From Eledone cirrhosa (Eukaryota), in the NCBI GenBank assembly GCA_964016885.1, contig OZ024751.1:34782001-34846000 (forward strand): DNA of 64,000 nt, read 5' to 3'. The notes beneath the pieces are model-generated. The model was given only the letters and a program-made list of their open reading frames with translations, had not been told where the DNA came from and made no database searches. Positions within the stretch are counted from its first letter, which is position 1; each line of letters begins with the position of its first letter. Made by a program: the position numbers and the translations under genes. Positions 41,352-41,966 of this stretch are shown here, one piece after another.

Positions 41352-41353
<2 letters not shown>

Positions 41354-41964
41354 GGAAAAAATGAAACGAAATTTCATTTCCCACTCTTAGTACGGCTGTT
41401 ACTTAAATATAAGTATGTACACGTACATACATATATGTATACAGACGTACAGTAGTATGTATATTTATATACATACATGCACACATATATATATATGTAC
41501 GTATGGATTCACCGAACATTTATTATAATGCTTGGTGTGCTTGTAAACAAACATCCCGTATTAAGCCGTAGTGTCCAGCAACCATCGTTTCATTTTTTCC
41601 GTTTATCGTTTTCGGTGCACCCGACCGATTAACCCACTCGATATGCAAATTGGGCTACTCAGCCGTTAATATGCATAAGGTAAGTATATACGTTCAACAA
41701 TCTGGCAGGAAGGTATACGTTGCTGACGATAGCTAATAAGCTTGAAACTAGTACAGCGTTCCTTTGTCAGTGTTGAACAAACGAGCAACGATGGTTGCTG
41801 GACACTACGGCTTAATACGGGATGTTTGTTTACAAGCACACCGAGCATTATAATAAATGTTCGGTGAATCCATACGTGCATATATATATGTGTGCATGTA
41901 TATATATATACATACTACTGGACGTCTGTATACATATATGTATGTACGTGTACATACTTATATT

Positions 41965-41966
<2 letters not shown>
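41352..41966. mobile_element. Family A fold-back insertion: inverted 3' half (41352-41589, -), then a tail-to-head junction, then a forward copy (41603-41966, +)
   Basis: Arms 41404-41589 and 41787-41966 are reverse complements. 41586-41602 is the exact reverse complement of 41352-41368. Confidence 0.85.
41717..41759 (+). ncRNA. Type I hammerhead ribozyme, family A copy 2
   Basis: ACGUUG-CUGACGA-UAGCUAAUAAGCUU-GAAA-CUAG-UA-CAGCGU. Distal stem GUUCAACA (41692-99) / UGUUGAAC (41771-78). Confidence 0.8.

Follow-up and report, generated by a model that had tools for sequence, protein, structure and literature searches.

Insertions of the Penelope type are described as partial tandems in (TA)n targets, extended at one end only and bearing at their 5′ end an inverted copy that is itself 5′-truncated (PMC8557442), and in one published case the inverted repeat overlaps the direct repeat by 15 bp (PMC3846280). 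A purified protein of a Penelope-like element (PLE), for which a dimer is predicted, nicks both strands of the target and extends each of them; it initiates at two internal positions of the RNA and inserts uncleaved RNA, with no need for ribozyme cleavage (PMC11167929). Animal non-LTR retrozymes have been called non-autonomous PLE derivatives (bioRxiv 10.64898/2026.07.22.740005), and the canonical metazoan type I hammerhead ribozyme is described as acting as a dimer (PMC4209133). For L1 elements, the twin-priming model holds that cDNA ends anneal at short complementarity (PMC2912911). Both the origin of the tandem and inverted repeats of PLEs and the use of retrozyme circles as insertion templates are stated to be open (PMC8557442, bioRxiv 10.64898/2026.07.22.740005).

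Structure of the insertion

The locus at positions 41352 to 41966 of the window (the whole stretch of 64,000 nucleotides of Eledone cirrhosa DNA that was analyzed) holds a single insertion, between two microsatellites, of a non-coding repeat that is 416 nt long and abundant. An earlier note on this DNA had seen a Penelope-like layout, and the locus does combine a partial tandem with an inverted truncated copy, as in the published insertions. With the unit numbered from U1 at 41603, the order from left to right is (TA)15, the minus-strand segment from U416 down to U185, U399 to U416, U1 to U364, and (AG)40. The features of the locus, and of a second copy of the family elsewhere in the window, are as follows.

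41323 to 41352, no strand: (TA)15 target microsatellite, left flank (tandem-repeat scan)
41352 to 41589, minus strand: inverted unit truncated at its 5′ end, running from U416 to U185 (self-alignment and copy comparison)
41585 to 41589, no strand: 5-nt microhomology TCGTT at the head-to-head (fold-back) junction (arm alignment)
41585 to 41602, plus strand: partial tandem, the last 18 nt (U399 to U416) of a preceding unit (tail-to-head junction at 41602/41603)
41603 to 41966, plus strand: forward copy, U1 to U364, stopping 52 nt before the full 3′ end
41692 to 41778, plus strand: predicted canonical type I hammerhead ribozyme (core pattern and folding)
41966 to 42044, no strand: (AG)40 microsatellite, right flank (tandem-repeat scan)
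28937 to 29384, plus strand: the other family member of the window, 448 nt long and made of one whole unit, 82% identical (within-window comparison)

The inverted copy of the 3′ half, which the earlier note had placed upstream of the element, is present in the window assembly. It holds the last 52 nt of the unit (41352 to 41403), which are missing from the forward copy and bear the 3′ terminal hairpin. The end of the forward copy, U364, lies at most 3 nt from a second end of the family (U361). The four breakpoints of the locus fall at unit positions U416, U185 to U189, U399, and U364, and the predicted ribozyme cut falls at U151/152.

Self-alignment gives two inverted arm pairs, 41462-41589/41787-41914 (128 nt, 92%) and 41404-41490/41880-41966 (87 nt, 92%), with a spacer of 197 nt between the inner arm ends. 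Aligned end to end over 186 columns, the arms measure 186 and 180 nt, in agreement with the inverted arms of about 180 bp and the ribozyme-bearing loop of about 200 nt described in the earlier note, and are separated by 4 substitutions and 2 indels (6 gap columns). Each arm carries private changes when the copy at 29 kb is used as an outgroup. Folding predicts 178 arm-arm pairs in a transcript through the locus; the earlier remark on long double-stranded RNA is a consequence of this predicted folding only.

The segment from 41585 to 41602 is the exact reverse complement of the left insertion end, 41352 to 41369 (BLAST E = 2e−4, within the window), and is followed directly by the same sequence that starts the copy at 29 kb. 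The repeat of the tail immediately before the head, reported earlier as 17 nt, is therefore exact but 18 nt long. The match of the left arm to the right ends at 41589, but the tail copy already starts at 41585, so the two overlap by TCGTT; the microhomology claimed for the fold-back is likewise real, although it spans 5 nt rather than the 4 nt of CGTT. When the unit is joined head to head at random, 1.0% of the joins overlap by at least 5 nt, or 0.6% without its microsatellite part. The partners of the fold-back each lie within small hairpins.

MITEs and Helitron/Helentron-type DNA elements are marked by terminal or subterminal inverted repeats. A search of the unit for such repeats recovered no inverted repeat of 9 nt, and the 18-nt inverted repeat was ruled out as a pair of MITE ends, being missing from the copy at 29 kb; it is the tail seen twice. 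We also rejected self-primed copying of the left end as the source of the 18 nt, because such a copy would have continued into TA and not into the head.

The copy at 28937 to 29384 lies inside a long (TA)n tract, carries the same ribozyme core (29067 to 29091), and has TTATA at both ends, with a length of exactly one unit. The reason may be that the target was duplicated, that the ends share microhomology with the TA tract, or that a circle was copied for one full turn. In both window copies, the G+C content of the unit is 0.37 to 0.39, and an octamer, ATGCAAAT, is conserved 40 nt into the head (41643 and 28979); we take it to be a possible promoter element. The longest ATG frame of the unit encodes 71 to 75 aa, two frames over the locus have no Pfam match, and the unit contains no Pol III A or B box. 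Taken alone, the locus is an ordinary insertion of a type already known.

Genomic setting

The window is rich in microsatellites (127 tandem-repeat rows) and contains no tRNA genes. Long satellites occupy 1438 to 7672 (42-nt unit, 148 copies) and 15005 to 17267 (22-nt unit, 101 copies), and TA-rich tracts run from 32637 to 39489 (6.9 kb) and from 49965 to 58440 (8.5 kb), the latter containing a 200-base gap at 51405 to 51604. Near the locus, we found neither a host gene nor a Penelope protein among the Pfam searches of 79 filtered open frames outside a LINE. None of these 79 frames matched Pfam, and no autonomous partner was seen among them; nor does a frame for a telomerase-like reverse transcriptase with GIY-YIG lie in or near the locus.

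The sole reverse transcriptase of the window belongs to that LINE, a different and broken element at approximately 19650 to 23965 on the plus strand (RVT_1 at 20542 to 21783, E = 1e−22), which presumably resembles the R4/Dong clade. Its C-terminal frames at 22042 to 22965 and 23288 to 23821 resemble restriction-like endonuclease ends, and it is flanked by (TAA)n tracts at 19611 to 19646 and 23967 to 24006. The segment 19645 to 20038 repeats 22640 to 23040 at 93%, which suggests tandem LINE copies.

Several other repeats were recorded. A near-perfect palindrome of 305 nt at 49427 to 49731 (148/152 positions pair) starts in a short TA tract and has a right arm about 70 nt longer; this separate repeat folds back with next to no spacer, like the junctions described for Penelope in rotifers. 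Another, at 42150 to 42570, begins TATACTAG...CCCGGCGTTGC, a start like that of Helitron/Helentron-derived elements, and its part from 42427 to 42568 matches 32440 to 32580 at 89%. A dispersed repeat of 100 to 190 nt occurs at 44784 to 44978, 60058 to 60233, 61493 to 61685, 20059 to 20173, and 31826 to 31926, with copies 78 to 94% alike.

Predicted hammerhead ribozyme

The core CUGACGA...GAAA (41723 to 41729 and 41744 to 41747) is present in both window copies. Helix I (41717-41722/41754-41759, 6 bp) is folded inside a longer stem, helix II has 4 bp plus a U.U at its base, and helix III is formed by the palindrome ACUAGU (41747 to 41752), with the cut predicted after 41753 (U151/152). The core pattern has four matches in the window against 0.44 expected: 41723 to 41747, 29067 to 29091, and two others outside the repeat. 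In helix I, the pair 41720/41756 varies: it is U.G at this locus, A-U in the copy at 29 kb and, judging by matching depths in public sequencing run X4, G.U in a third. Of the 40 variants listed, the ones that hit the motif are confined to N7, loop II, and helix I. Both copies are predicted to fit the canonical metazoan type I hammerhead and not the minimal form of PLEs.

The catalytic fold is predicted to lie 1.4 to 2.3 kcal/mol above the free fold, and with a helix III of 1 to 2 bp the monomer is predicted to cut poorly. Rfam gave no match at the gathering score over the whole window; among its 59 weak matches in 41340 to 41980, which are mostly microRNA models on the TA/CA-rich part, none is a hammerhead. 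Searches with the ribozyme-core patterns found 0 loci in the scanned viral contigs, metagenome contigs, and prokaryote genomes.

The repeat family in public sequencing runs

Parts of the stretch are contained in 20 runs from 16 studies, which bear many species labels and none of which is recorded as RNA. Four of the 23 runs listed were aligned to the stretch at 80% likeness: X1, possibly the window's own sample (12,011 contigs aligned); X6 (158 contigs); X21, a restriction library with the same species label (79,049 reads); and X4, with another species label (4 contigs). The repeat family is very large, with a very high copy number.

The tail-to-head junction recurs throughout these data. In 56 X1 contigs, the loose ends before 41585 have a consensus equal to the upstream tail (agreement of 0.89), and tail-to-head joints at 41371/41584 and 41370/41585 are found in 1 contig of X1, in one 218-nt contig of X4, and in 37 and 20 reads of X21 (13 and 10 starts, respectively). 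Depth at 41592, 11 nt upstream of the head, is 47% (X1) and 48% (X21) of that at 41619. The 18-nt tail-to-head junction is the ordinary junction of the family and marks no special event, and the template with such a junction that had been proposed for this locus is upheld by its occurrence across the family under two species labels. The junctions carry at most 86 to 91 nt of the upstream unit, and no listed piece spans two ribozymes, the listed pieces being too short for two; full tandem arrays are deduced from these junctions.

Depth along the unit falls from 2.57 million near the 3′ end to 0.72 million in the head and 0.38 million at the junction, so that the 3′ end is 6.7-fold (approximately 7-fold) deeper than the junction bin. 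Depth is a rough measure, not to be read as copy number, and subfamily divergence, masked repeats, and contig breaks all distort it. The predicted cut is flanked by depths of 2.10 and 1.88 million, with no drop 5′ of it. This profile fits fixed 3′ ends, 5′ truncation, and intact ribozymes and is unlike random permutation; the circular permutation of copies that the earlier note expected would have given a flat profile, and what we see, within the limits of depth as a measure, is polarized to the 3′ end.

In X1, 41 contigs have loose TA-rich ends at 41407 (U361), and 400 of the 12,011 contigs extend past the ends of the stretch. We suggest that the family has two classes of 3′ ends (U416 or beyond, and U361 to U364), 52 to 55 nt apart, which appear to match the two outer ends of the locus. 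Among the 15 joints listed, fold-backs occur at other unit positions too, including one from 41394 to 41732 with a 3-nt overlap that is common to X1 and X21. The focal fold-back junction is bridged by none of the 23 pieces listed and is known from the window assembly alone. Both arms of the locus have G at U234, where A makes up 99.86% of X1 depth and 96.5 to 98.8% of X21 reads; this shared rare G points to a single source for the arms.

Two sets of X21 signals were set aside. The end piles at 41369/70 and 41648/51, considered as insertion ends, lie on AATT sites and are library artefacts, and the joints seen only in X21 at 41393 to 41396 lie on a GTAC site and were left out of the evidence.

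Comparison with retrozymes, PLEs, and L1

The unit length of 416 to 448 nt falls within the 150 to 450 nt published for animal non-LTR retrozymes (PMC7229834; bioRxiv 10.64898/2026.07.22.740005), with no LTR layout, and its G+C content of 37 to 39% within their published range of <45%. Those elements are likewise described as non-coding, with head-to-tail junctions, monomer copies, and a very high copy number. The U.U pair at the base of helix II is shared with HHR_Amex2 of the axolotl, and the weak palindromic helix III with HHR_Amex1. Judged by its sequence, the repeat has the size, composition, and ribozyme features of an animal non-LTR retrozyme, which is a known kind of element. Animal retrozymes are, however, reported with at least 2 consecutive whole units, self-cleavage, circular RNA, and homology to the pLTR of an autonomous PLE of their own genome, whereas the present repeat is known from its junctions and a predicted ribozyme. 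In addition, the available retrozyme descriptions do not include inverted arms, in contrast to the inverted arms, microsatellite sites, and polarized 3′ ends of the copies studied here.

For endonuclease-bearing PLEs (Penelope/Poseidon, Neptune, Nematis, and Naiad) and non-autonomous derivatives such as MRC1, a partial tandem with an inverted 5′-truncated copy is described (PMC8557442, PMC3846280, PMC11167929), along with extension of one arm, microsatellite targets, 5′ truncation, and a hammerhead in the repeat, all as here. Three differences stand out in the same descriptions. The extension or tail between the two starts of reverse transcription is 30 to 40 nt in PLEs and 52 to 55 nt here; PLEs encode a reverse transcriptase with GIY-YIG, whereas the repeat has no such frame; and the PLE minimal hammerhead has a helix II of 7 to 8 bp with G10.1-C11.1 (PMC4209133), as opposed to 4 bp with U.U.

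The 5′ inversions of L1 formed by twin priming (PMC2912911) involve two opposite-strand cDNAs joined by microhomology, as we propose for this locus. They differ in having poly(A) and in using adjacent RNA segments, whereas here there is no poly(A), 180 nt are copied twice, and the template is a tandem unit. A search of an open-licence collection returned no paper that, by its title or the start of its abstract, dealt with twin priming in Penelope inversions, which does not prove that there is none.

Origin of the inverted arms

We propose that two cDNAs were primed from opposite strands of the microsatellite on linear tandem RNA by a Penelope-like enzyme and joined at TCGTT, a reading to which we assign a probability of roughly 0.55. 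The enzyme would be a Penelope-like reverse transcriptase/GIY-YIG protein working in trans. Of the two cDNAs, the one on the top strand would have run from the full 3′ end, U416, as far as U185, and the one on the bottom strand from the second end, U364, through the natural junction to U399. The two cDNA 3′ ends would then have annealed at TCGTT/AACGA in the style of twin priming. The double copying of U185 to U364 calls for a pair of RNAs or for a multimer that supplies two units; the simplest template would be an uncleaved read-through transcript of tandem copies. Linear tandem transcripts would be available, since genomic junctions with 86 to 91 nt of an upstream unit exist. Against this reading weigh the failure to find an autonomous partner among the frames of the window, the finding that no listed piece spans two ribozymes, a distance between the two ends that exceeds the published tail, and the fit of both window copies within one turn, which a circle would give as well.

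The earlier note had instead explained the locus by a ribozyme-generated circle that was reverse transcribed with strand switching. In that form the explanation is not supported. None of the 4 breakpoints lies at the predicted cut, depth is polarized to the 3′ end, and the geometry of a single cDNA does not work: one that started at U364 and folded back would end its copy at U364, yet the left arm reaches U416, and one that started at U416 would next copy TA and not the head. A template that is a ribozyme-cut, religated 416-nt circle (the retrozyme model), copied by a PLE enzyme from a fixed internal site across the junction, is possible but doubtful, and it still needs two circles or two rounds for the two arms. 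In its favor, circles of animal repeats that carry canonical type I hammerheads build up in coral, mussel, and axolotl (PMC7229834), and a circle was proposed in 2014 for PLE tandems (PMC4209133). The ribozyme is intact in most copies, with no loss of depth at the cut, both window copies stay within one turn (382/416 nt here and exactly one unit at 29 kb), and the plus strand of the unit is predicted to fold far better than its shuffles (z of −6.5 to −8.5, 25 shuffles each). Circular folding is, however, predicted to be no better than linear folding (−138.9 versus −144.6 and −134.2 versus −141.1 kcal/mol), and we dropped folding energy as evidence for a circle for lack of any gain. Besides the positions of the breakpoints and the poor cutting predicted for a monomer with so short a helix III, the circle has against it that, of nine frog dimers, only one cut in vitro (bioRxiv 10.64898/2026.07.22.740005), that ribozyme mutants left PLE insertion in vitro unchanged (PMC11167929), and that linear tandem transcripts can be had from the genomic junctions. 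We regard as rather doubtful the corresponding picture of RNA circles copied by a Penelope-like enzyme with fixed internal starts, a usual stop within one turn, and priming of both target strands. The back-junction reads that the earlier note proposed to look for at the cleavage site could not tell these templates apart, because a religated unit cut from a tandem would restore the genomic sequence.

The two primings on linear tandem RNA that we favor must also be weighed against other origins of the inversion. Self-priming on an antisense template and endonuclease resolution of a transposition intermediate have both been published for the head-to-head repeats and tails of PLEs (PMC3846280, PMC8557442), and the small hairpins around both junction partners, as well as the near-perfect palindrome beside a TA tract at 49427 to 49731, would suit them. 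The junction here is not palindromic, though, having a 197-nt spacer and a 5-nt overlap, and one folding strand should not give U365 to U416 plus U1 to U184 without an extra template switch; we consider this origin improbable. It is quite improbable that the inversion is a later fold-back of a tandem copy at the DNA level or a chimera of assembly or amplification. The focal junction is unbridged among the pieces listed, the region is rich in microsatellites, and the shared rare variant is also compatible with local duplication, but a later fold-back would retrace the (AG)40 right flank, whereas the left arm runs through 52 nt of the unit and then into (TA)15. Unlike those of a fresh chimera, the arms differ by their substitutions, indels, and private changes, and the 5-nt overlap is probably too short for a misjoin between two loci.

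Implications

The locus is a compact and clean example of this kind of insertion, and its family, being abundant and shared by runs under many species labels, could answer the question of the template through a genome-wide count of copy ends. If the copying of RNA circles were true, the choice between a circle and a linear multimer would become decidable from genomes, for PLEs and retrozymes, by way of a length step at one unit.
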